Positions 1 to 30,434 of a DNA stretch of 32,000 nucleotides are shown here, piece by piece. The translations under genes were made by a program, and so were the position numbers. Within the stretch, counting starts at the first letter, position 1; each line of letters begins with the position of its first letter. The DNA is from Telmatocola sphagniphila (lineage in GTDB: Bacteria; Planctomycetota; Planctomycetia; Gemmatales; Gemmataceae). A model generated the notes under the pieces. That model was not told where the DNA came from. It worked only from the letters and a program-made list of their open reading frames with translations, and searched no databases. The stretch covers positions 1,950,001 through 1,982,000 of the forward strand of contig NZ_CP074694.1 in the NCBI RefSeq assembly GCF_018398935.1, in the 5' to 3' direction.

Positions 1-712
1 TGAAGTTCAACTGCCGACACGCCCGCAGAATCGGTTTCTTCGCATAGCCGCCATCCGCCACGATCCAGACTGCTTTCCCCGGAGAAAACAAAGACTTCGA
101 GAGCCATTGCAGGATCTCCACCGCCAGTTGCAGCTTGGTCCGAAACTTCCACTGGTACTTGCGGGGAAGCGTCGCGACCTCTTTCTGGCGGACGTATAAC
201 TGGGCTCGCAAAGGCAAGCCGATAATGCCGTGGAGAGGATGCCAGGCCAATAAAGCCGCCACGACGAAGTTCTGCCCGTATTCGAGCAACTGTCCGATTG
301 GACCCGGAGTCGGATTGTGGTGAATTCCGGCCCCTTCGACCTTCGGACCGTAACGTTTGGTGAGGGTGTCATCCAGAGCAATCACGATCTTCTCGGATTG
401 GGCCGCCGGGTGTTTGAGAACCAGTCGTCCCACGGCGGTACTCATCGAAAGGGATTCTCGACCGACCGCTGCAAGGTGCCGGTAGGCCGACTTGTACTTT
501 CGACGGATACCGGCGGCTCGGAACCATCGGGAGGCGGTGCGTCGCTGGTCCTGAGCGAGGAACATGCCGCGGAAGATACGCACGGTTAGCGACTGGATTC
601 GAGCATCCAAAAAGAAGACCAGGGCGGAAAAAGCACTGGACAGAAAGGAGGGAAAACGAGATACTTCCATGGCCGGTGCCTTCCTGGCTTGATGTTTTTT
701 AAGCACCACCAT
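1..712 (-). CDS. DDE transposase, N-terminal ~237 codons (runs off the window edge)
   Basis: The start codon (cat at 710-712) lies 82 nt inside the IS end, as in copy B. It is the same reading frame as the 458-aa ORF at 29039-30415 (MVVLKKHQARKAP...). It is absent from the ORF track because no stop falls in the window. Confidence 0.85.
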   Translation of the reverse strand, partial: MVVLKKHQARKAPAMEVSRFPSFLSSAFSALVFFLDARIQSLTVRIFRGMFLAQDQRRTASRWFRAAGIRRKYKSAYRHLAAVGRESLSMSTAVGRLVLKHPAAQSEKIVIALDDTLTKRYGPKVEGAGIHHNPTPGPIGQLLEYGQNFVVAALLAWHPLHGIIGLPLRAQLYVRQKEVATLPRKYQWKFRTKLQLAVEILQWLSKSLFSPGKAVWIVADGGYAKKPILRACRQLNF

Positions 713-794
713 GCTGACGGAAGCACCGGCTTTTTCAAGAACAATTCAAATTCCCAATACCCCTAAATTGTTAAGACTTTCTGGGAAAGTGCAG
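1..794 (-). mobile_element. Window-truncated copy A of a ~1.48-kb IS (IS4/IS701-like DDE superfamily, family unresolved), inverted relative to copy B at 28957-30434
   Basis: The reverse complement of 1-794 aligns base-for-base with 28957-29750. I saw at least 4 single-base differences. The terminal sequence tctgggaaagtgcag at 780-794 is the inverse of ctgcactttcccaga at 28957-28971. Confidence 0.9.
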
Positions 795-866
795 AAACTG
801 TTATAAAAAGCGCAAATATCGCAGAGATATGGCGATTTTATAATTTCAAATAGTTATTCGAACACA

Positions 867-3804: not shown

Positions 3805-4794
3805 GTGATACTGAGTCCAATTCGATTCGATGCAGCAGGAGTTAGAACAGTGCAGCCTCTTGTGACTATCCCAATAGCCGCGTACAAGAGCCGACCCGAT
3901 CATTTGCAAATGGCCATCCAGAGCGCTCTATCGCAATCCATAAAAGATATCGAGATTATCGTATCGGATGATTCGCCTGACGACTCACTCAGGCGTATAG
4001 TCGATACCTTTCGGGATGCCCGAATCAGCTACCACCATAACAATCCAAGGCTAGGTGTCGCCAAGAATCACTGGCGAGCTTTTGAAAATGCCAGAGGCGA
4101 GTTTATCGCAGTACTAAACCATGACGATGTGATTGCTGTGAATTTCTTAGAGAAGCTGGTAAATCCGCTACTTGCCGATCCGAACTTGGCAATTGCATTT
4201 TGTGACCACTGGGTGATTGATCTGGAAGGGCGTCAACTCTTGGATGAATCCAATCACATAAAGCAGATCTGGGGCCGGGACAAAATTATTCCTGGTGTGG
4301 TAATGCCATTTTATCATTTATTTGTGGCACAATCTGTCCCAATGGTGATGGGAGCCGTCTTCCGTAAGAATTTGTTTCCATCGAATCCGCCTGATCTAGC
4401 CGGTCCTGCTTATGACTTATGGATGACATACCTACTCTGTCGTGAAGGCCGTGGAGCTTACTATACTCCAGAGCGGCTCAGCAGTTGGCGTGCGCACCCT
4501 AAAAATATCACTAGCCAAGGAGGTTTGGATTGGTTTTATGGCTCGGCGAAATGTTGGGCGACCGCTGGTCGAGATGCCAATTTTCTGCCTTACAAGTCAC
4601 AAATTCTCCGAAAAGCTGCTATAGGTTATTTTAATTGTGCACTCTTTGAATTAAGAAGAGGCAAAACGTGGAGTGCGTTCCTGTTTGGACTTCGGTCTAT
4701 TAAAACAAAACCTACTTCAAAAGGATTTACTGCCTGCCTTTTACCTGTACTTCCGAAACCAATACGATGTCGATTGCTCAGAAACAAAACTTAG
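3805..4794 (+). CDS. Family 2 glycosyltransferase (GT2)
   Basis: VTIPIAAYKSRPDHLQMAIQSALSQSIKDIEIIVSDDSPDDS...LGVAKNHWRAFENARGEFIAVLNHDDV is a GT-A fold N-terminus with DD and DxD-like motifs. The true start may be the GTG at 3850. The region looks visibly AT-richer than the rest of the window. Confidence 0.8.
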   Translation: MILSPIRFDAAGVRTVQPLVTIPIAAYKSRPDHLQMAIQSALSQSIKDIEIIVSDDSPDDSLRRIVDTFRDARISYHHNNPRLGVAKNHWRAFENARGEFIAVLNHDDVIAVNFLEKLVNPLLADPNLAIAFCDHWVIDLEGRQLLDESNHIKQIWGRDKIIPGVVMPFYHLFVAQSVPMVMGAVFRKNLFPSNPPDLAGPAYDLWMTYLLCREGRGAYYTPERLSSWRAHPKNITSQGGLDWFYGSAKCWATAGRDANFLPYKSQILRKAAIGYFNCALFELRRGKTWSAFLFGLRSIKTKPTSKGFTACLLPVLPKPIRCRLLRNKT

Positions 4795-5045
4795 CCAAAT
4801 TTGATTCTAGAACGGTTAGAAATATGCATCCTTACCAAGAGTAATCAGTTTTCAATATTATTTATAACTGATCATAATATTACCCTAAATACAATCGCAT
4901 GAGATAAATGAATTGTATTCCCATGGAAATGAATTAATCGCCTTGGCTTGGTGCATACTTCTTGTACTTCCTGAATCGATTTAGGTTCACAACATAAATT
5001 TTGTTGGCTAATTTAAACTGCTGGTCCTTCAACTAGCAGAACAAC

Positions 5046-5639
5046 TTGAGGTTCTCGTACATGCCACCCGATACGCGAATGTTTCGATCGCCTCCTCTCA
5101 CGTTTCCTAACATTCCTGCATTAGACGGGCTTCGAGCCGTGGCAGCTTGTCTAGTCTTGATTCATCATGGAAGTTATGGCCGATTGCCAGGGGGATGGAT
5201 CGGAGTAGATCTGTTCTTTGCGCTCTCGGGTTATCTGATCACGGGAATTCTTGCGGCAGAATTGTCACGAACGGGAAGGATACGATTCGGCCGATTTTAC
5301 ATCCGTCGTGTTTTAAGGCTTCTGCCTGCACTAATAGCTACAGTGTTGTTGGCGGGACTTCTTTGGCCAATAACCCCATTTAAAAGCCCTACTCCATCAT
5401 GGCTTGAGGCCGCTGCGGCTGCGTTGTTCTATGTCGCCAATCTTGTCCCTGCCGAATCCTTGGGGTCTCTGTCACACTGTTGGTCGTTAGCGATTGAAGA
5501 GCATTTTTATCTGCTCTGGCCACCAATACTGGCTGTCGCCTGGAGGCACGGAGGTCTACGTTTAGCGATTGTTCTCGCGGTTTCAGGGATGGCCGCTGTC
5601 GCCAGGGAAATCGCGCTTAAATTCCAAGAAAACATCTAA
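5046..5639 (+). pseudogene. Acyltransferase family 3 (OafA-like), 5' fragment interrupted by ISAs1
   Basis: ALDGLRAVAACLVLIHHG...GWIGVDLFFALSGYLITGIL...YIRRVLRLLPAL is the acyltransferase_3 N-terminal signature. Authentic coding ends at 5602. The rest of the ORF reads into the IS terminal repeat. The likely start is the ATG at 5061. Confidence 0.8.
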
Positions 5640-6894
5640 TGTCATTAATTGTATTGCGCATCGTTCTTCTTTAGTGGAGGATGTGGAAATCGCTCGCTAG
5701 ATCGCCCTGGGGTTCCTCGATGTTTCAGCTTTCCGAACTATCTCCCGCGCCGGCGAAAACTCCGTTGACCGATCTCCTCGTCCACTTCGCGGATTTGCCC
5801 GACCACCGCCTCGATCGTTGCCAACAACACACGCTTTCGGAAATCATTTTCATAGCCATTTGCGCCGCGGTTTCCGGAGCCAACGACTGGGTGGCCGTCG
5901 AAGCTTTCGGCGTGACCAAGATCGACTGGTTCCGGAAGTATCTCCCCTTGCCCAACGGCATCCCGAGCCATGACACTTTCGGCCGAGTTTTCCGCTATCT
6001 GGACACGGATGCTTTCGAGGCCTGCTTCGCTTCATGGATGGCGGAAATCTGCGTCGGGACCGACCTGCTTCAGGTGGCGATCGACGGCAAGACGATGCGT
6101 TCGTCAGGCGGTCCGGGTCAGAAGTGCCTGCACGTGGTCAGCGCGTTTGCGACGGCCAACCGCGTGACGCTGGGCCAAGAGGCGGTGGACGATAAATCGA
6201 ACGAGATCACCGCGATCCCGGAATTGCTGAAACGGCTGGACATTGCCGGAAAAATCGTGACTATCGACGCGATGGGCTGTCAAAAAAAAATCGCCGAGGC
6301 GGTGCGGGAACGGGACGCGGATTACCTGTTGGCGGTGAAGGACAATCAACCGACTCTCTTGGCCGAGATCAAGGCTCATTACTTCAAGCATTTGGAGTCC
6401 GGATTCGCCGATGTACCGACGACGTTCTGCGAATCGACGGAGAAGAATCGAGGCCGAGTGGAGTACCGTTCGTGCCTCGTGTTTTCGGACGTCAATTTCT
6501 TATCGATGAAGGACGATTGGAAAGGCTTGAAGACGGTGGTCGTGGTGGTGACCGACCGCCGAGAAAACCACAAGAGCGCGAGCGAAATCCGCTACTATAT
6601 TTGCAGCCGAGCGTCGGACGCTCCGGTGTTGGCGAAAGCGGTCCGGGAACATTGGACGATCGAGAATAATTTGCATTGGTCCTTGGATGTGACATTCGGC
6701 GACGACGACAGCCGGGTTCGAAAAGATAACGGCCCTCAGAATTTCGCCAGGATTAAAAGGTTGGCTCTGAGCATAGTAGCGAATGCGAGCGGCAAGGAAT
6801 CGATGGCAGTCAAACGACTGAAAGCCTGCGCCAGCGATGAACGCCGAGAATTAATTATTCGAGAATTCCTTCAGCTTTAAATGCGATTTCCCTG
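5603..6894 (+). mobile_element. ISAs1-family insertion sequence (1,292 bp) with a 10-bp target-site duplication
   Basis: Inverted repeat cagggaaatcgcgcttaaa (5603-5621) / tttaaatgcgatttccctg (6876-6894), 17/19 matches. Perfect direct repeat ccgctgtcgc at 5593-5602 and 6895-6904. Confidence 0.9.
5681..6880 (+). CDS. ISAs1 family transposase (H-repeat-associated type)
   Basis: LLVHFADLPDHRLDRCQQHTLSEIIFIAICAAVSGANDWVAVEAFG...GIPSHDTFGRVF...IDGKTMR...LHVVSAFATANRVTLGQEAVDDKSNEITAIPELL..L...GKIVTIDAMGCQKKIA is the characteristic ISAs1 layout. The real start may be the ATG at 5720. Confidence 0.9.
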   Translation: MWKSLARSPWGSSMFQLSELSPAPAKTPLTDLLVHFADLPDHRLDRCQQHTLSEIIFIAICAAVSGANDWVAVEAFGVTKIDWFRKYLPLPNGIPSHDTFGRVFRYLDTDAFEACFASWMAEICVGTDLLQVAIDGKTMRSSGGPGQKCLHVVSAFATANRVTLGQEAVDDKSNEITAIPELLKRLDIAGKIVTIDAMGCQKKIAEAVRERDADYLLAVKDNQPTLLAEIKAHYFKHLESGFADVPTTFCESTEKNRGRVEYRSCLVFSDVNFLSMKDDWKGLKTVVVVVTDRRENHKSASEIRYYICSRASDAPVLAKAVREHWTIENNLHWSLDVTFGDDDSRVRKDNGPQNFARIKRLALSIVANASGKESMAVKRLKACASDERRELIIREFLQL

Positions 6895-25120: not shown

Positions 25121-26035
25121 GAGTCTGTTCCAAAAGCGTGTATGTGTGTATAATTACACATGGAACGGAAACCCTATTCAACAGATTTAACGGATGCTCA
25201 GTGGGCTCTTTTGGAGCCCTGGATTCCCGAGGCTCGACCCGGTGGTCGACCGCGAAAAACCGACATGCGAGAAGTCGTCAATGCCCTATTCTACCTGACC
25301 AAGGAAGGATGTCGCTGGCGAGGTTTACCGCATGACTTTCCCCCGTGGAAAACGGTTTACAATTATTTTGAAGCTTGGAAGCGGGACGGCACTTGGGAAG
25401 AGATCCTAACGGCTCTGCGCTGTCGCGTTCGTCAAGCGGCCAATCGTTCGCCCAATCCTCGCGTTGCCTGCATCGACAGCCAGTCGGTGAAGACGGCTTT
25501 TGGAGGAGAAGAAGTCGGAACCGATGGCGGCAAAAAGGTCCGCGGCCGTAAACGCCACATCGTGGTGGATACTCTCGGATTACTGCTAGCCCTAGTGGTA
25601 ACGGGCGCGAATGTCGATGATGCCAAAGCTGCTCAAACGCTGTTTGAACAGATGCCCAAAACTGCTTTTCCCCGCTTGGAAACCATACAGGCGGACAACA
25701 AGTATCACAATTATCAATTGCAGAGTTGGCTGCGGGATCACAAGCGACCCTATACCGTTTGGGTGGTGAATCGTCCGTCGGGAGAACGAAAGTTTATGCC
25801 GCTGAGAAGTCGCTGGGTGGTGGAGCGAACTTTCGCCTGGTTGGGACGTTGTCGACGGCTAAGTAAAGACTACGAGCATTTACCGGAATCCAGCGAGGCC
25901 ATCGTGCAAATCGCATGCATTCAACACTACTTACGCCGTCTCTATCCCAGTCGAGTGAAACATACACAACGGTTTCGGTATAAAGGCCATACTCCTAAAA
26001 CTCTAGCCGCTTAATTCGGCTTTTGGAACAGACTC
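25121..26035 (+). mobile_element. IS5-family (IS427-like) insertion sequence, 915 bp, with a TTA target duplication
   Basis: 17-bp perfect inverted repeat gagtctgttccaaaagc (25121-25137) / gcttttggaacagactc (26019-26035). TTA lies immediately outside both ends (25118-25120 and 26036-26038). Confidence 0.9.
25160..26014 (+). CDS. IS5 family transposase (284 aa)
   Basis: DUF4096-type N-terminus (LTDAQWALLEPWIPEARPGGRPRKTDMREVVNALFYLTKEGCRWRGLP) followed by the DDE core (IDSQSVKT...KRHIVVDTLGLLLALVVTGANVDD...ADNKY...RWVVERTFAWL). Confidence 0.92.
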   Translation: MERKPYSTDLTDAQWALLEPWIPEARPGGRPRKTDMREVVNALFYLTKEGCRWRGLPHDFPPWKTVYNYFEAWKRDGTWEEILTALRCRVRQAANRSPNPRVACIDSQSVKTAFGGEEVGTDGGKKVRGRKRHIVVDTLGLLLALVVTGANVDDAKAAQTLFEQMPKTAFPRLETIQADNKYHNYQLQSWLRDHKRPYTVWVVNRPSGERKFMPLRSRWVVERTFAWLGRCRRLSKDYEHLPESSEAIVQIACIQHYLRRLYPSRVKHTQRFRYKGHTPKTLAA

Positions 26036-26168
26036 TTAGTACGCGCTGGCCCTGTCCCCTACCCTCCTGCGACGGGCTTGTCAATTAACCAACTGCAAAC
26101 CACTACCAAAGTTTTGCAACGGACAAATCGAATCCCAACACGTCACTTACCCAGCGAGAGATTCTCAG

Positions 26169-26873
26169 TTACTTTGCCCGCTTAGCCCTCTCATCGTACC
26201 AAGCCTGCAACAGAAGAAAACTCGCGAAAACCATCACGACCCACTGATAAAAAGTCAACCCCGAGTCCATCCTTGGCTCAATTCGAATGAACTCCATTAC
26301 GAAGCGAAAAACGCAATATGCGATGAGGTAAATCTTCAACCGCTGGGTCGCGAATTGATTGGAAATCTGCCAGCGCGCCAGTATCCAGACCCAAAAGCCG
26401 TGAAAAACCGATTCGTACAACTGCGTTGGATGACGTGGAATTCCATCGCCAAAATCGTAGCCCCAGGGCAATTCTGTTGGCTTACCCGCACAGCATCCAT
26501 TCGCAAAACAGCCAAGCCGTCCAATCGTCAGAGCGAGCGCCAGAGGCAGAGCGAGACCATCTCCAGTTTTTACGCGAATACCGCGAATCGCCTTGCATAT
26601 TTCGACCCCAAGATAGGCTCCCATCAATCCCGTGGTTAACGTTTTACCGTCTGAAAACCAGGTTTCCCACGAATACATCGCCGGATCATTCATCAATACG
26701 AAAGGTAACTTGGCGCTAATCGTTCCCCCAAAAAATGCAGAGATTCCTATCCAGATTCGATCCATCAGAGGCAGGCGAGCCGATGGATCATTGACGGCAA
26801 ACAGCCGACGGCCCAAAAGGAAAACCAGAACGGCCAAGATCATGCAGGCGCCATAGGCAAAGCGCCCGCTCAT
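26169..26873 (-). CDS. Lgt-family (prolipoprotein diacylglyceryl transferase-like) membrane protein, short form (234 aa)
   Basis: FGGTISAKL, LALTIGRLGCFANGCCAGKPTELPWGY and IPRHPTQLYES match the Lgt signature blocks, and the protein is multi-TM. Its start overlaps the radical-SAM stop (ATGA at 26870-26873). Confidence 0.75.
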   Translation of the reverse strand: MSGRFAYGACMILAVLVFLLGRRLFAVNDPSARLPLMDRIWIGISAFFGGTISAKLPFVLMNDPAMYSWETWFSDGKTLTTGLMGAYLGVEICKAIRGIRVKTGDGLALPLALALTIGRLGCFANGCCAGKPTELPWGYDFGDGIPRHPTQLYESVFHGFWVWILARWQISNQFATQRLKIYLIAYCVFRFVMEFIRIEPRMDSGLTFYQWVVMVFASFLLLQAWYDERAKRAK

Positions 26874-28423
26874 GATTTTACACCACCCAGTGAAATCAAG
26901 GGCAGATTAGAAATGCTTCGTGATGATGTGTCCTGCTTGGAATCTGCAAGCGGTGGTAGAGGCAATGTGCCATCGCGGTATAAGGTGTTGTAAGCACAAA
27001 AGGGTATTATGTGACCGCTGGGCAAAATGTGCGCCAGGCAGCATTTCATCACTCGCCGGGTATCGAAAGTATAGCTATCCAGAAAACCGGTAAGCGTGAT
27101 GCGAAAGACCTCCTTGCCCGTCAACTTTTCTGACAGCGCCTGCTCGATGAAATTGGAAGGCTCGGCCGATCCGCACCCTCCCGGACCGCAGCCGCAATCC
27201 CCTGCCGAGGCAACGGCTTTTGCGACGAGGTTCCTGGCTCGAGCGGGAGTATATACGATGGAATTGGCAATCAGATCCATATGTGGTTTCGGATCGATCA
27301 GTCGCGAAATAGGTACGACACTCTCTTCTCCCCGATAGAGATAAGCCATTCGATGACAATTGGGGTGGGCACAGGGCAAAGGATAAAAATCGTCTGCACG
27401 AAGTATCTCCGGCACTTGCCGCACCAAGGCTTTCATCAGATCGGGCATGGTCGTGCGATTTTCGAGATCTTTCGCAGGAAGATGCCGGCCGCAGTATGTA
27501 GCCAGCTGATAGCTCACGCCGCGAACTTCTTCCCGCGACAGCCCGAACTTCAGCACTTCACCCACCTGATCGATATTTGCCGTATGTTCTACAGTACAAA
27601 CCAACGTGCAGCGTATTCCGGCCTCGCGAAGTCGGTCCAGTGCCTGCCGTTTGACATCGAGAAGATTCTCGCCGCGCAAAGCGAGATGGCTTTCACTCGA
27701 AAATCCGTCGAATTGAAGATAAATTTCCAGCCGATCTCGCATCGTGGCTAGTTGAGAAACGAGATCCGGATCCCGTGCGAGCCGAATACCGTTTGTGTTG
27801 ATCATCACGACCTGTATCGGTTGCTGATAGGCATACTCCAGCATAGGGACAAGTTCGGGATGAAGTGTCGGTTCACCGCCAGAGAGCTGCAGCACATCAG
27901 CGATCCCTTCATGCAGAATATAGCGATCCACCATCGATTTATAGGTCGCAAAATCGATGTGCTTACCGCCGGGCCCTGACTCCGCAAAGCACATTGGGCA
28001 ACGTAAATTGCAAGAGGAAGTAATTTCGATTAATCCAATGCAGGTGTGCTGTTCGTGCTCCGGGCAGAGGCCGCAATCGTAGGGGCAGCCTTTGTCGGCA
28101 GTTGTCCCATACGATTCCGGCATTCGCGCCGGCTGATCGAATTCATGCTGGTCGTAAAAAGCGACATCCGAGCATATGAAATCTTCGCGCGTTCCGTGTT
28201 CCGGACAATGCTTCCGGAAGTAAACGCGTTGGCCGCGCACCAGGATTTTCGCATCGACCACTCGTTTGCATTCGGGGCAGAGGCTTCGAGTGGTTCCGCG
28301 ATAGACGTAATCTCGAACGGGCATCTTAGACTCCCGATTAATTAAGAATTCAGATAGATCCGGATCCCAATGATGTCGCTTGAAATCCGCCTTCAGTTCA
28401 TCAGTTGAGCTGAGATGATTCAA
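26870..28423 (-). CDS. Radical SAM enzyme with an N-terminal zinc ribbon and extra Cys clusters
   Basis: Zinc ribbon CPECKRVV...KHCPEHG. A first CX3CX2C motif, CPYDCGLCPEHEQHTC. The canonical radical-SAM motif SSCNLRCPMCFA followed by LQLSGGEPTL. A Cys-rich C-terminus (PCAHPNCH, DCGCGPGGCG, KCCLAH...IPFCAYN). An alternative start at 28324 has GGGAG 6 nt upstream. Confidence 0.85.
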   Translation of the reverse strand: MNHLSSTDELKADFKRHHWDPDLSEFLINRESKMPVRDYVYRGTTRSLCPECKRVVDAKILVRGQRVYFRKHCPEHGTREDFICSDVAFYDQHEFDQPARMPESYGTTADKGCPYDCGLCPEHEQHTCIGLIEITSSCNLRCPMCFAESGPGGKHIDFATYKSMVDRYILHEGIADVLQLSGGEPTLHPELVPMLEYAYQQPIQVVMINTNGIRLARDPDLVSQLATMRDRLEIYLQFDGFSSESHLALRGENLLDVKRQALDRLREAGIRCTLVCTVEHTANIDQVGEVLKFGLSREEVRGVSYQLATYCGRHLPAKDLENRTTMPDLMKALVRQVPEILRADDFYPLPCAHPNCHRMAYLYRGEESVVPISRLIDPKPHMDLIANSIVYTPARARNLVAKAVASAGDCGCGPGGCGSAEPSNFIEQALSEKLTGKEVFRITLTGFLDSYTFDTRRVMKCCLAHILPSGHIIPFCAYNTLYRDGTLPLPPLADSKQDTSSRSISNLPLISLGGVKS

Positions 28424-28453
28424 TTTTCAGAAGCACGCAACTTCGCCAGAGGA

Positions 28454-28786
28454 TCAAGGGAATCCTCCACATCGATCCAGGATCAGGATGAAGCCAGCGA
28501 TCCCGAGGACAACAAATACGCAGAAAAGTATCAGAAACCACTTGATTAGCAAACTACAACCAAAATCAGGATACAATTCACGAGGATCCTTGCCCGGCGG
28601 GGACTCGCCCGCGTCTTTCGTAGGGGGCGGAACGGCAATGGTCATCTCTGAAGCCGTTTTGACTTGCTTATTTTCTAAGTTAATGGGCGGCGTATTCGGC
28701 ACTTCGGCCGACTTCGGAGCAATGGGATTCGGATCGCTCGACGCTTTCCCGGGCGCCGGAGTCGCGGGATTCTGGGGCTCGTTCAT
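28454..28786 (-). CDS. Proline-rich small protein with a C-terminal TM anchor (110 aa)
   Basis: GAGAGAAG precedes the ATG. The N-terminal 75 aa are Pro/Lys/Glu-rich and look disordered. Then come DFGCSLLIKWFLILFCVFVVLGIAGFILIL (a TM segment) and the tail DRCGGFP. It is co-directional with, and directly upstream of, the radical SAM gene. Confidence 0.5.
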   Translation of the reverse strand: MNEPQNPATPAPGKASSDPNPIAPKSAEVPNTPPINLENKQVKTASEMTIAVPPPTKDAGESPPGKDPRELYPDFGCSLLIKWFLILFCVFVVLGIAGFILILDRCGGFP

Positions 28787-28956
28787 AGTCTTCTCTCGAA
28801 GTAGGTGAGGGTTTCCACGAACTCTTTCATTTTAAGCGACAGATTGAATTGCGACTATAAATTCTGAATTTGAATAAAATAGTTCGGTACGATCGCGGAG
28901 CCCGATGGCTGAACGACCAAAATAATCAGTCTAATAAAATAGACCTTGTTTACAGT

Positions 28957-30434
28957 CTGCACTTTCCCAGAAAGTCTTAACAATTTAGGGGTATTGGGAA
29001 TTTGAATTGCTCTTGAAAAAGCCGGTGCTTCCGTCAGCATGGTGGTGCTTAAAAAACATCAAGCCAGGAAGGCACCGGCCATGGAAGTATCTCGTTTTCC
29101 CTCCTTTCTGTCCAGCGCTTTTTCCGCCCTGGTCTTCTTTTTGGATGCTCGAATCCAGTCGCTAACCGTGCGTATCTTCCGCGGCATGTTCCTCGCTCAG
29201 GACCAGCGACGCACCGCCTCCCGATGGTTCCGAGCCGCCGGTATCCGTCGAAAGTACAAGTCGGCCTACCGGCACCTTGCAGCGGTCGGTCGAGAATCCC
29301 TTTCGATGAGTACCGCCGTGGGACGACTGGTTCTCAAACACCCGGCGGCCCAATCCGAGAAGATCGTGATTGCTCTGGATGACACCCTCACCAAACGTTA
29401 CGGTCCGAAGGTCGAAGGGGCCGGAATTCACCACAATCCGACTCCGGGTCCGATCGGACAGTTGCTCGAATACGGGCAGAACTTCGTCGTGGCGGCTTTA
29501 TTGGCCTGGCATCCTCTCCACGGCGTTATCGGCTTGCCTTGGCGAGCCCAGTTATACGTCCGCCAGAAAGAGGTCGCGACGCTTCCCCGCAAGTACCAGT
29601 GGAAGTTTCGGACCAAGCTGCAACTGGCGGTGGAGATCCTGCAATGGCTCTCGAAGTCTTTGTTTTCTCCGGGGAAAGCAGTCTGGATCGTGGCGGATGG
29701 CGGCTATGCGAAGAAACCGATTCTGCGGGCGTGTCGGCAGTTGAACTTCACATTGATCAGTCGGCTCCGCAAGGATGCCGCCCTATACGAGTTGCCCTCT
29801 CCCTCCAAAGGTCGGGGGCGTCCCCGCAAGTACGGAGAGAAGCGAATCGACTTGGCCAAGCGAGCGGCTCATGCCCGGGGATGGTCGTCGGCCTCCCTGC
29901 AGTTGTACGGTCGCCCAGAAGTCAAAACGTACAAGAGTTTTCTGGCGACCTGGAAGTCGGCGGAGGGAGTCATCCGCGTGGTTCTGGTTAAAGAGAAAAA
30001 AGGGTGGATCGCTTTCTTCTCGACGAATCCGGAGGCGACGGTGGCCCAGATCCTGGAAACCGTGGCCAGCCGCAATGCCATCGAGCAGGTCTTCAAGGAC
30101 GTCAAGGAAGTTTGGAGAGCCGGTCAGCAGCAATTGCGAAACCTGCACGCCAACATCGGCGCGTTTCACATGAACCTGTGGATGATGACTTTGACCGAAC
30201 TGTGGGCTTGGGATCAACCGCAAAGGAAGTTAGTGGATCGTGCCGATCGTCCCTGGGATAATCGGCCGCGACGGCCTTCTCATAACGATCGACGCAAGTC
30301 GTTGCTAAAGCTGATTTTGCAAGAAGAATTTCGAGCACTTCCGCAAAGAGGGCCCGGAACGCGAAAATACAAAAAAGCCGTCAAACGCTTGTTCCAAATG
30401 GCCTGCTCCGCTTAGATTATCTGGGAAAGTGCAG
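28957..30434 (+). mobile_element. Complete copy B of the IS4/IS701-like element (1,478 bp)
   Basis: 14-15-bp terminal inverted repeat ctgcactttcccag(a) at 28957 / (t)ctgggaaagtgcag ending at 30434. One 458-aa transposase ORF. No clear target duplication is visible. Confidence 0.9.
29039..30415 (+). CDS. DDE transposase (458 aa), IS4/IS701-like
   Basis: Candidate catalytic triad contexts are IVIALDDTLTKRYG, VWIVADGGYAKK and RNAIEQVFKDVKE. There is a basic patch, KGRGRPRKYG. The family assignment is not resolved by eye. Confidence 0.88.
   Translation: MVVLKKHQARKAPAMEVSRFPSFLSSAFSALVFFLDARIQSLTVRIFRGMFLAQDQRRTASRWFRAAGIRRKYKSAYRHLAAVGRESLSMSTAVGRLVLKHPAAQSEKIVIALDDTLTKRYGPKVEGAGIHHNPTPGPIGQLLEYGQNFVVAALLAWHPLHGVIGLPWRAQLYVRQKEVATLPRKYQWKFRTKLQLAVEILQWLSKSLFSPGKAVWIVADGGYAKKPILRACRQLNFTLISRLRKDAALYELPSPSKGRGRPRKYGEKRIDLAKRAAHARGWSSASLQLYGRPEVKTYKSFLATWKSAEGVIRVVLVKEKKGWIAFFSTNPEATVAQILETVASRNAIEQVFKDVKEVWRAGQQQLRNLHANIGAFHMNLWMMTLTELWAWDQPQRKLVDRADRPWDNRPRRPSHNDRRKSLLKLILQEEFRALPQRGPGTRKYKKAVKRLFQMACSA

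Follow-up and report, generated by a model that had tools for sequence, protein, structure and literature searches.

A Tes-like radical SAM enzyme, a short-headed Lgt paralogue and a small cysteine-bearing membrane protein of Telmatocola sphagniphila form a conserved module with a possible role in protein lipidation

A gene for an enzyme resembling the archaeal tetraether lipid synthase (Tes, also referred to as GDGT-MAS) lies directly beside a gene for a membrane protein of the Lgt family in the planctomycete Telmatocola sphagniphila, and this raises the question of what an enzyme of this kind, from the radical S-adenosylmethionine (SAM) group, does together with a homologue of a diacylglyceryl transferase. 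The stretch of DNA analysed, referred to here as the window, comprises 32,000 nucleotides (contig NZ_CP074694.1 of assembly GCF_018398935.1, positions 1,950,001 to 1,982,000). Three co-directional open reading frames (ORFs) on its minus strand (26169-28786) encode a small membrane protein, the radical SAM enzyme and the Lgt-like protein (Table 1), as had been proposed in an original prediction made from the letters of the sequence. In the current analysis the trio is found to be a widely conserved module. We tentatively suggest that it modifies its own small protein with lipid, as a dedicated system of protein lipidation and lipid remodelling, and the evidence for this and for the competing explanations is described below.

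The adjacency of the two enzyme genes, from which the original prediction had drawn its argument, is conserved far beyond the window. Of 30 planctomycete loci, 29 have an Lgt-like gene that flanks the radical SAM gene and shares its strand, and such a gene is present at six of the seven nearest orthologous loci. Among 80 loci taken from all prokaryote species representatives, 56 have it within the 4-kb flank, again in the same orientation. The pair has been identified in Bacteroidota, Bacillota, Pseudomonadota, Acidobacteriota, Chloroflexota, Melainabacteria and archaeal metagenome-assembled genomes (MAGs), with representatives in Paenibacillus, Brevibacillus, Neobacillus, Flavobacterium, Pedobacter, Aquimarina and Rhodanobacter as well as in Vicinamibacteria, Terriglobales, Obscuribacteraceae and a Methanosarcinales MAG. 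Gene order reverses between clades while the coupling of the two genes stays; in two loci considered later, L006 and L007, the Lgt-like gene lies downstream of the radical SAM gene. The distribution is patchy, the module being encoded in 61 of 301 genomes of the phylum, 6 of 24 of the family and 1 of 15 of the sister family. The best orthologue of the radical SAM enzyme in a reference genome is 71% identical to it, and one metagenome protein is 82% identical. An Lgt gene on the opposite strand at locus L022 is regarded as a coincidental partner, since the radical SAM protein of this locus belongs to the methyltransferase clade described below and the Lgt encoded there clusters with the housekeeping ones. 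Open frames of 700-1100 residues in planctomycete loci were likewise set aside, the single locus checked (L024) having an over-extended GC-rich frame.

The Lgt-like protein shares with Lgt of Escherichia coli (5AZB/5AZC) its fold and a Pfam domain that is matched nearly from end to end (PF01790, 99.2 bits against a cutoff of 24.9; profile positions 13-234 of 240). Its AlphaFold2 (AF2) model has a predicted local distance difference test score (pLDDT) of 94.9, and 5AZB is the sole PDB match with an E-value below 0.001 (TM-score 0.63). It falls, however, under every lgt equivalog cutoff, with 51.5 bits against 118.9 for TIGR00544 and 75.6 against 334 for NF000778. The signature residues of Lgt include H103, the segment G142-R143-LG-N146-FING-E151, Y235, R239 and E243 (PMC13251419). 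The protein of the window keeps R143, D129, G154, Y235, R239, E243, R246 and the HP(T/S)QLYE motif, and its signature changes are Thr at H103 and Cys at both N146 and E151. The change of N146 to Cys is also known from Leptospira Lgt (PMC13251419).

That these features belong to a subfamily is seen on comparison of 90 paired copies with seven housekeeping Lgts. On a hidden Markov model (HMM) built from the paired copies these score a median of 259 bits and the housekeeping Lgts 41-94. R143 is kept in 89 of the 90 paired copies, G154 in 88, and Y235, R239 and E/D243 in all of them; the position of N146 is Cys in 88. The head loop has a median of 17 residues in the paired copies (range 6-24; 17 in the window), well short of the median of 31 (26-187) in housekeeping Lgts. 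Since the periplasmic head domain of canonical Lgt governs its specificity for protein substrates (PMC13251419), so minimal a head would fit a different class of substrate. The presumed substrates of the Lgt-like protein also differ from those of Lgt in having no signal peptide with an N-terminal lipobox.

A separate full-length housekeeping Lgt of 429 residues is encoded at about 296947-298137 of the genome (L001:685-1974, minus strand), so that the Lgt-like gene of the window is not the sole lgt of its organism. All five of the other pair-bearing genomes that were checked likewise encode a canonical, higher-scoring Lgt (six of six including that of the window). The Lgt-like protein is, as judged from its sequence, a dedicated paralogue that belongs to a distinct short-headed subfamily in which the catalytic arginines are kept. 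The housekeeping copy of the genome has at the position of the head domain an insertion of about 190 residues with a PDZ-like segment, 'GLQPGDKILKFNG', and it shares the GR.GC..NGCC.G variant of the signature. The GC..NGCC signature, considered at one stage to be a trait special to the paired copy, was for this reason given up.

The radical SAM enzyme comprises a rubredoxin-like Zn/Fe ribbon, an N-terminal [4Fe-4S] domain, a radical SAM core and a Cys-rich C-terminal domain, and its Pfam matches are PF23545 ('HMPTM' zinc ribbon) and PF04055. The longest ORF (26870-28423) would encode 517 residues from a TTG codon. Homologues are 473-493 residues long, with the equivalent of 'MPVRDY' as their first residues, and a Shine-Dalgarno (SD)-like GGAG stands 6 nt ahead of the ATG at 28324-28322; the protein is therefore most likely 484 residues long, and its residues are numbered here from this Met. 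The stop codon of the gene overlaps the start codon of the Lgt-like gene within an ATGA, as had been predicted, and this would be consistent with translational coupling. The ribbon (CPEC...CPEH) and the two CX3CX2C motifs (CPYDCGLC and CNLRCPMC) named in the original prediction are all present. Its description of the C-terminus proved right as to the richness in Cys (KCC, IPFCAYN) and wrong as to the end of the protein, about 37 residues following IPFCAYN.

The closest PDB entry, and the sole solved relative, is the GDGT-MAS/Tes protein MJ0619 (7TOL, E-value 6e-70). The AF2 model (pLDDT 89.1) matches 7TOL/7TOM in Foldseek with TM-scores of 0.80-0.81 (E-value 6e-40) over 490-496 columns, and the next matches have TM-scores of 0.39 or less and cover the core only (SkfB, 0.38). 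No SPASM domain is matched in Pfam, and the matches to SPASM-family models are confined to the radical SAM core, with at most 59 bits. Among curated models the best score is obtained with TrsS of NCBIfam (NF045646), which matches end to end with 332.2 bits but under its cutoff of 490; 16 other members of the family tested on this model did not reach it either. The score on the Tes model (NF045702) is 290.8 bits against a cutoff of 450, whereas true Tes proteins of Nitrososphaerota score 620-737.

A tree of 122 sequences (11 true Tes and 111 others; quick search, LG+G4), rooted on true Tes, places the protein more precisely. The true Tes proteins are split off by a long branch (length 0.9+0.9) with a support of 100. 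A methyltransferase-linked clade (15 rows) has an SH-aLRT support of 83, and every Lgt-linked enzyme, that of the window included, falls into one superclade (96 rows, SH-aLRT 98) apart from both. Within the superclade are a Ktedonobacteria subclade (2 rows, 100), a subclade of anaerobes with a methyltransferase of the ICMT type (5 rows, 100), a planctomycete-only subclade in which the radical SAM gene precedes the Lgt-like gene and to which the protein of the window belongs (37 rows, 100), and a broad multi-phylum subclade with the Lgt-like gene first (52 rows, 99); the deep branching order of these subclades is not resolved in the LG+G4 tree. No Lgt-like partner is seen within flanks of about 1.5 kb at any of the 11 true Tes loci. 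The enzyme is built like Tes but is no Tes orthologue, as it scores below the Tes cutoff, lies outside the Tes clade and has another set of invariant C-terminal Cys. The resemblance to Tes named in the original prediction is thus borne out for the four-domain fold and does not extend to orthology, the scores falling under the curated cutoffs of both Tes and TrsS. The nearest characterised relative remains a lipid enzyme, and no grouping with a characterised non-lipid family was found in these comparisons.

One Nitrososphaera genome (G302) encodes both a true Tes of 694 bits (L117) and a methyltransferase-linked paralogue of 320 bits (L070/L120), which indicates that homology to Tes does not by itself identify tetraether synthases. 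Locus L063, on a contig binned as 'uncultured Alcaligenaceae' (CAYYJM010000176.1), encodes a radical SAM protein that is 64-67% identical to those of Gemmataceae and nested in the planctomycete clade; either the contig has been mis-binned or the gene was transferred recently.

The cysteines of the enzyme show what is shared with Tes and what is not. Three sets of ligands are invariant in every clade of the 122-sequence family alignment, namely C16, C19, C40 and H43 of the rubredoxin-like ribbon, C80, C84 and C87 of the N-terminal cluster with H90/H93, and C105, C109 and C112 of the radical SAM motif. They match the ligands published for GDGT-MAS (rubredoxin CX2C-X20-CX2H, Cys73/77/80 plus His for [Fe4S4]N, and the radical SAM CX3CX2C; PMC9433317). 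In the C-terminal domain C323, C428 and C443 are present in 11 of 11 true Tes, in 15 of 15 members of the methyltransferase-linked clade and in 29-32 of the 37 members of the clade of the window, and they are mostly lost in the broad Lgt-first clade (D/E at 443, S/T at 428). We infer that this triad supplies ligands of [Fe4S4]C, the text of the Tes paper naming no Cys ligands. Met439, the labile ligand of the C-terminal cluster in Tes, is aligned with Thr in the enzyme of the window. Another four residues, C95, C318, C384 and C429, are absent from true Tes (A/G; A/T/V; gap; D/N/V, respectively) and invariant in the approximately 111 non-Tes members, with the lone exception of C384, which is missing in the ICMT clade. 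The pattern is read as an additional or alternative Cys4 site of the non-Tes branch, and the clade of the window would then hold both sets.

Cys384, situated in the single low-confidence internal loop of the model, is Cys in 31 and TGA in 2 of the 37 members of the clade of the window. The in-frame TGA codons are those of two planctomycete relatives with a 61%-identical radical SAM enzyme, L006:1501-2910 (minus strand) and L007:1495-2901 (plus strand). Selenocysteine at this position is plausible since the same genomes encode SelA and SelB, both above cutoff. The TGA probably encodes selenocysteine, and these two proteins would be unannotated selenoprotein forms of the Lgt-linked enzyme, in line with TrsS as a family of Sec and Cys members. 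Both loci have a conserved hairpin after the TGA; tested as a selenocysteine insertion sequence (SECIS), it has the same energy as shuffled sequence and is taken as no more than a hint. The genome of the window itself encodes SelA/SelB at genome 779675-782940. Apparent in-frame TGA codons of L016, L017 and L020 turned out to be stop codons or flanking sequence, so that internal ones are confined to L006 and L007.

The third member of the module is the small protein. The one encoded in the window has the features that had been pointed out originally, that is a Pro-rich N-terminal half, an FGC (DFGC, Cys77) just before its sole hydrophobic helix (residues 78-103 of 110) and an RCGGFP at its end, the tail reading ILILDRC(106)GGFP. 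The small proteins have no match in Pfam or NCBIfam, and that of the window contains no N-terminal lipobox of the form [LVI][ASTVI][GAS]C, its Cys contexts being DFGC and LDRC. In the subclade of the window one to three such proteins are encoded in tandem upstream of the radical SAM gene, and many of them begin with a zinc ribbon. Those of eight loci, the nearest relatives, end alike in a helix, a Cys and a short tail: VILICNGGFH and FFLRCNGRFR in L038, VLVVCSGPRSH in L042, FLVCGQPFSSRS in L044, FGLACKSPQ in L063, FAVCLLDSRGGFH in L147, FIACMASSPRFR in L149, LLVVCSTGRF in L150 and FATCFGGSTRMLE in L151. The motif C-x(0-4)-G-[GR]-F-[HPR] of the tail is shared by L038 (CNGGFH, CNGRFR), L147 (CLLDSRGGFH) and L150 (CSTGRF).

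In the Lgt-first clade a membrane protein of 55-120 residues usually begins at the stop codon of the radical SAM gene or a few bases from it. It has a Cys 4-16 residues from the C-terminus in contexts such as GFGAC, GLGIC, NAACFG, VAACFG and G[FA]G[AT]C, and in 11 of 18 examples this conserved Cys is the only one. In other planctomycetes the upstream protein has about 190 residues with a zinc ribbon, a Pro-rich region and several transmembrane (TM) helices, and its Cys is one of only four columns conserved to at least 85%. A small membrane protein with a single conserved Cys is found alongside the pair in each of the clades. The possibility, named in the original prediction, that the protein encoded upstream serves as substrate thus gains comparative support from the same Cys-tail architecture in relatives.

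Other clades of the family have other partners. In the anaerobe clade, which includes the Methanosarcinales MAG (L074, L089, L093 and L097, 5350-7750 in each), the radical SAM gene is followed by genes for a membrane methyltransferase of the ICMT/PEMT family, a DUF4395 membrane protein whose C-terminus bears a cluster of Cys, the Lgt-like protein and a protein of about 110 residues ending in ...GGC.... The ICMT-family enzyme has a weak match to the methanethiol S-methyltransferase MddA (E-value 1.2e-4). Enzymes of the ICMT family normally methylate C-terminal S-lipidated cysteines.

Among the 24 loci without an Lgt-like gene, 14 carry instead a gene for a Cys-rich class I methyltransferase. 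In these loci (L065, L068-L073, L075-L080 and L098, at about 4000-6400 of each) the Tes-like radical SAM gene is directly followed by that for a methyltransferase resembling ArsM and DVU_1556. The hosts belong to Chloroflexota, Dormibacterota, Acidobacteriota and Nitrososphaera, and a MerA-like flavoprotein disulfide reductase is often encoded nearby. The DVU_1556-family model, which we presume to mark the context of TrsS, nearly matches the partner in this clade (151.7 bits against a cutoff of 155), unlike that in the Lgt-linked one. The radical SAM enzyme with its methyltransferase, with or without the reductase, looks like a separate two- or three-gene system that is also uncharacterised. 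The ArsM-like partner recalls the arsM-arsS pair of arsenosugar synthesis, a lead that was dropped as the papers found offered nothing to place ArsS in this family.

Taken together, an intact Lgt-like enzyme with a minimal head, a Cys at the boundary of a membrane helix and an ICMT-family enzyme in one of the clades argue for dedicated S-lipidation of the small protein, which is the reading that we favour, with less than even confidence. The Lgt-like enzyme would take a glycerophospholipid donor, phosphatidylglycerol by analogy with Lgt, and would transfer a diacylglyceryl-type group to the thiol of Cys106 at the end of the TM helix, in the tail DRCGGFP. Radical chemistry at an unactivated carbon of this lipid, ahead of the transfer or following it, would be the work of the cytoplasmic Tes-like enzyme. 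Since the planctomycete clade retains the Tes-type triad of C-terminal Cys, the chemistry there would most likely be the joining of acyl tails through C-C bonds (macrocyclisation or cross-linking). The full-length match to GDGT-MAS takes in its lipid-binding C-terminal domain, which also speaks for this proposal. Crystals of GDGT-MAS were obtained with lipids that have a glycerol headgroup (PMC9433317; PMC13459092), and since this is the headgroup class of the donor of Lgt, we count it in the same direction.

Several observations weigh against such a role. The LDRC tail is no canonical lipobox, and its Cys comes after most of the protein and not before it. In the planctomycete proteins of about 190 residues the conserved Cys lies in the penultimate helix and not near the C-terminus. 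Canonical Lgt works at the outer face of the membrane, and it is not easily seen how it and a cytoplasmic radical SAM enzyme could act on one lipid. The broad clade has lost the Tes-type triad, so that its chemistry may not be Tes-like at all. A strict count of small TM ORFs with a Cys in the last 15 residues gave 27 of 51 broad-clade loci against 41% in a crude control of non-coding-frame ORFs; this criterion was abandoned in favour of alignment conservation, on which the case for a small-protein partner rests in view of that control. Finally, the trio of the window, bracketed by insertion sequence (IS) elements and without the upstream gene of 4-5 TM helices described below, may be poorly expressed in this organism.

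The original prediction had spoken of remodelling of membrane lipids or of lipoproteins, and of these two the modification of a dedicated protein is favoured here over that of free membrane lipids. Synthesis of free lipids, in which the radical SAM enzyme would couple phospholipid acyl tails into membrane-spanning or macrocyclic lipids, is considered unlikely. The Lgt-like protein would in that case be a membrane partner presenting phosphatidylglycerol, which Lgt binds, or replacing its headgroup, and the small proteins would be scaffolds or unrelated. The enzyme has the fold of GDGT-MAS over its full length, its clade keeps the three Cys invariant in true Tes, and such a role has been proposed for the Tes homologues of planctomycetes and acidobacteria (PMC8941075, PMC11214058). 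Its position outside the Tes clade and under the Tes cutoff argues otherwise, as does the loss of the triad from most Lgt-linked proteins, and the Nitrososphaera genome with both a Tes and a methyltransferase-linked member shows that non-Tes members need not do the work of Tes. The module is encoded in Paenibacillus, Flavobacterium, Pedobacter and Rhodanobacter, which to our knowledge are not known for membrane-spanning lipids, and it is patchy even within the family of the window. The Cys-bearing small proteins and the ICMT-type methyltransferase would moreover be left unaccounted for.

The lipidation of a small protein that we prefer has a functional analogue, and no more than that, in the eukaryotic processing of CaaX proteins (S-prenylation, removal of the tail and carboxyl methylation by ICMT). 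The module similarly has a Cys few residues from the C-terminus beside a membrane-embedded segment, a lipid transferase that would alkylate a thiol and, in one clade, an ICMT-family methyltransferase. It differs in that the transferase is not homologous, no CaaX protease is seen, the ICMT-like gene is absent from the window and the conserved Cys of many relatives lies away from the C-terminus. A more specific form of the proposal, which we regard as quite unlikely, is a protein-anchored cross-linked lipid: after CaaX-like C-terminal lipidation of the Cys of the microprotein, the Tes-like enzyme with its hitherto unrecognised, Sec-substitutable Cys4 site would join the lipid tails into a macrocycle or across the bilayer. 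If true, this would be a covalent staple between protein and lipid without known precedent in any organism.

Insertion of sulfur or selenium followed by capping, with the non-Tes Cys4 site forming a C-S or C-Se bond and a partner enzyme alkylating the new thiol, is thought to be very unlikely. The cap would be diacylglycerol, added by the Lgt-like protein, in the window and a methyl group in the sister clades. It would explain why the four Cys of this site set the non-Tes members apart from Tes, why one of them is a TGA codon in genomes with SelA and SelB, and why the partner in each clade comes from a family that includes alkylators of thiols or heteroatoms (Lgt, ArsM/DVU_1556-like and ICMT-family enzymes); Tes itself yields a sulfur-bearing lipid, an adduct with cluster sulfur, when SAM is limiting (PMC13459092). 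The idea is nonetheless purely inferential and names no identified substrate, the conserved Cys of the small proteins has no specific part in it unless these are sulfur carriers, and the Cys384 on which it partly depends is missing in the ICMT clade.

The surroundings of the trio in this genome are shaped by IS elements on both sides. The arm of copy B closest to the trio (28956-29750, 795 bp) is repeated in inverted orientation at window 1-795 with 99% identity, and its distance of 170 bp upstream of the ATG of the small ORF is as had been predicted. The two inverted ends, 28 kb apart, bracket most of the window, and recombination between them would invert the intervening segment. The IS5-type element on the other side is different from copy B and unrelated to it. 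No sigma-70-like promoter was found in 25900-29100 by a scan for this one promoter type, which is uninformative for a planctomycete. In relatives a gene for a protein of 205-250 residues with 4-6 TM helices precedes those for the small Cys proteins in 18 of 81 clustered loci, 16 of them of clade A (for example L035:4050-4688, L147, L149 and L152), with a weak match to a PilS-like 6TM protein (E-value 1.7e-5). It was not found in the genome of the window, an empty search being weak evidence of absence. It is most improbable that the trio is, in this genome only, a silent or decaying remnant severed from its promoter and upstream partners by the IS insertions: the nearby IS ends, the promoter scan and the missing upstream gene would agree with this, but the scan was of limited reach, relatives such as L037 and L042 likewise have no upstream gene, and the three reading frames are intact, every catalytic and cluster residue being retained along with the ATGA overlap and the SD-like GGAG.

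Table 1. Coordinates in the window of the trio, of two codons discussed in the text and of the flanking elements
Feature	Position	Strand	Basis or remark
Small membrane protein, 110 aa	28454..28786	-	ORF; putative substrate or carrier within the module
Tes-like radical SAM enzyme, 484 aa	26870..28324	-	Pfam, NCBIfam, PDB, AF2/Foldseek; start inferred
Lgt-family paralogue, 234 aa, 'paired' subfamily with minimal head loop	26169..26873	-	PF01790, AF2, subfamily analysis
ATGA overlap, radical SAM stop TGA and Lgt-like start ATG	26870..26873	-	Sequence read
Codon of Cys384, GPGGCGS loop	27173..27175	-	Alignment, clade table
Codon of Cys106, helix-Cys-GGFP tail, predicted acceptor	28469..28471	-	Sequence, tail motif in relatives
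IS 'copy B', DDE_5/IS4-type transposase at 29039-30415	28956..30415	+	ORF, Pfam, repeat comparison
Remaining native upstream DNA, AT-rich	28787..28955	.	Between small ORF and IS end
IS5-type transposase gene, about 150 bp past the Lgt-like stop	25160..26014	+	ORF, Pfam

Planctomycete and acidobacterial homologues of Tes have been mentioned only bioinformatically (PMC8941075, PMC11214058, PMC13159169, PMC13459092), and bacterial homologues have been hypothesised to make membrane-spanning lipids or branched glycerol dialkyl glycerol tetraethers (brGDGTs) (PMC8941075, PMC11214058). TrsS appears as a row of a table without a function (PMC13188914). Mss is a radical SAM enzyme distinct from Tes, and the genomes of Thermotoga and Thermoanaerobacter that encode it have no Tes homologue (PMC13159169). 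In the published literature searched no description of an Lgt paralogue coupled to a Tes-like enzyme was found. The window contributes the planctomycete-specific arrangement, with small proteins upstream and the radical SAM gene before that of the Lgt-like protein, together with the map of Cys separating the family from Tes, the Sec/Cys site and the sister clade with a methyltransferase partner.

The role of bacterial Tes homologues in the synthesis of brGDGTs, which serve as palaeoclimate proxies, and of membrane-spanning lipids is based on homology alone, and a large share of these homologues, namely all the Lgt-linked ones of at least eight phyla, forms a clade apart from true Tes. If the Lgt-linked enzymes modify proteins and not bulk lipids, the gene-based inference of brGDGT producers would need revision. 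The module would then represent a second route of lipoprotein-type lipidation, with a radical tailoring step, and its occurrence in the tractable genera Paenibacillus, Flavobacterium and Pedobacter makes the question directly testable.

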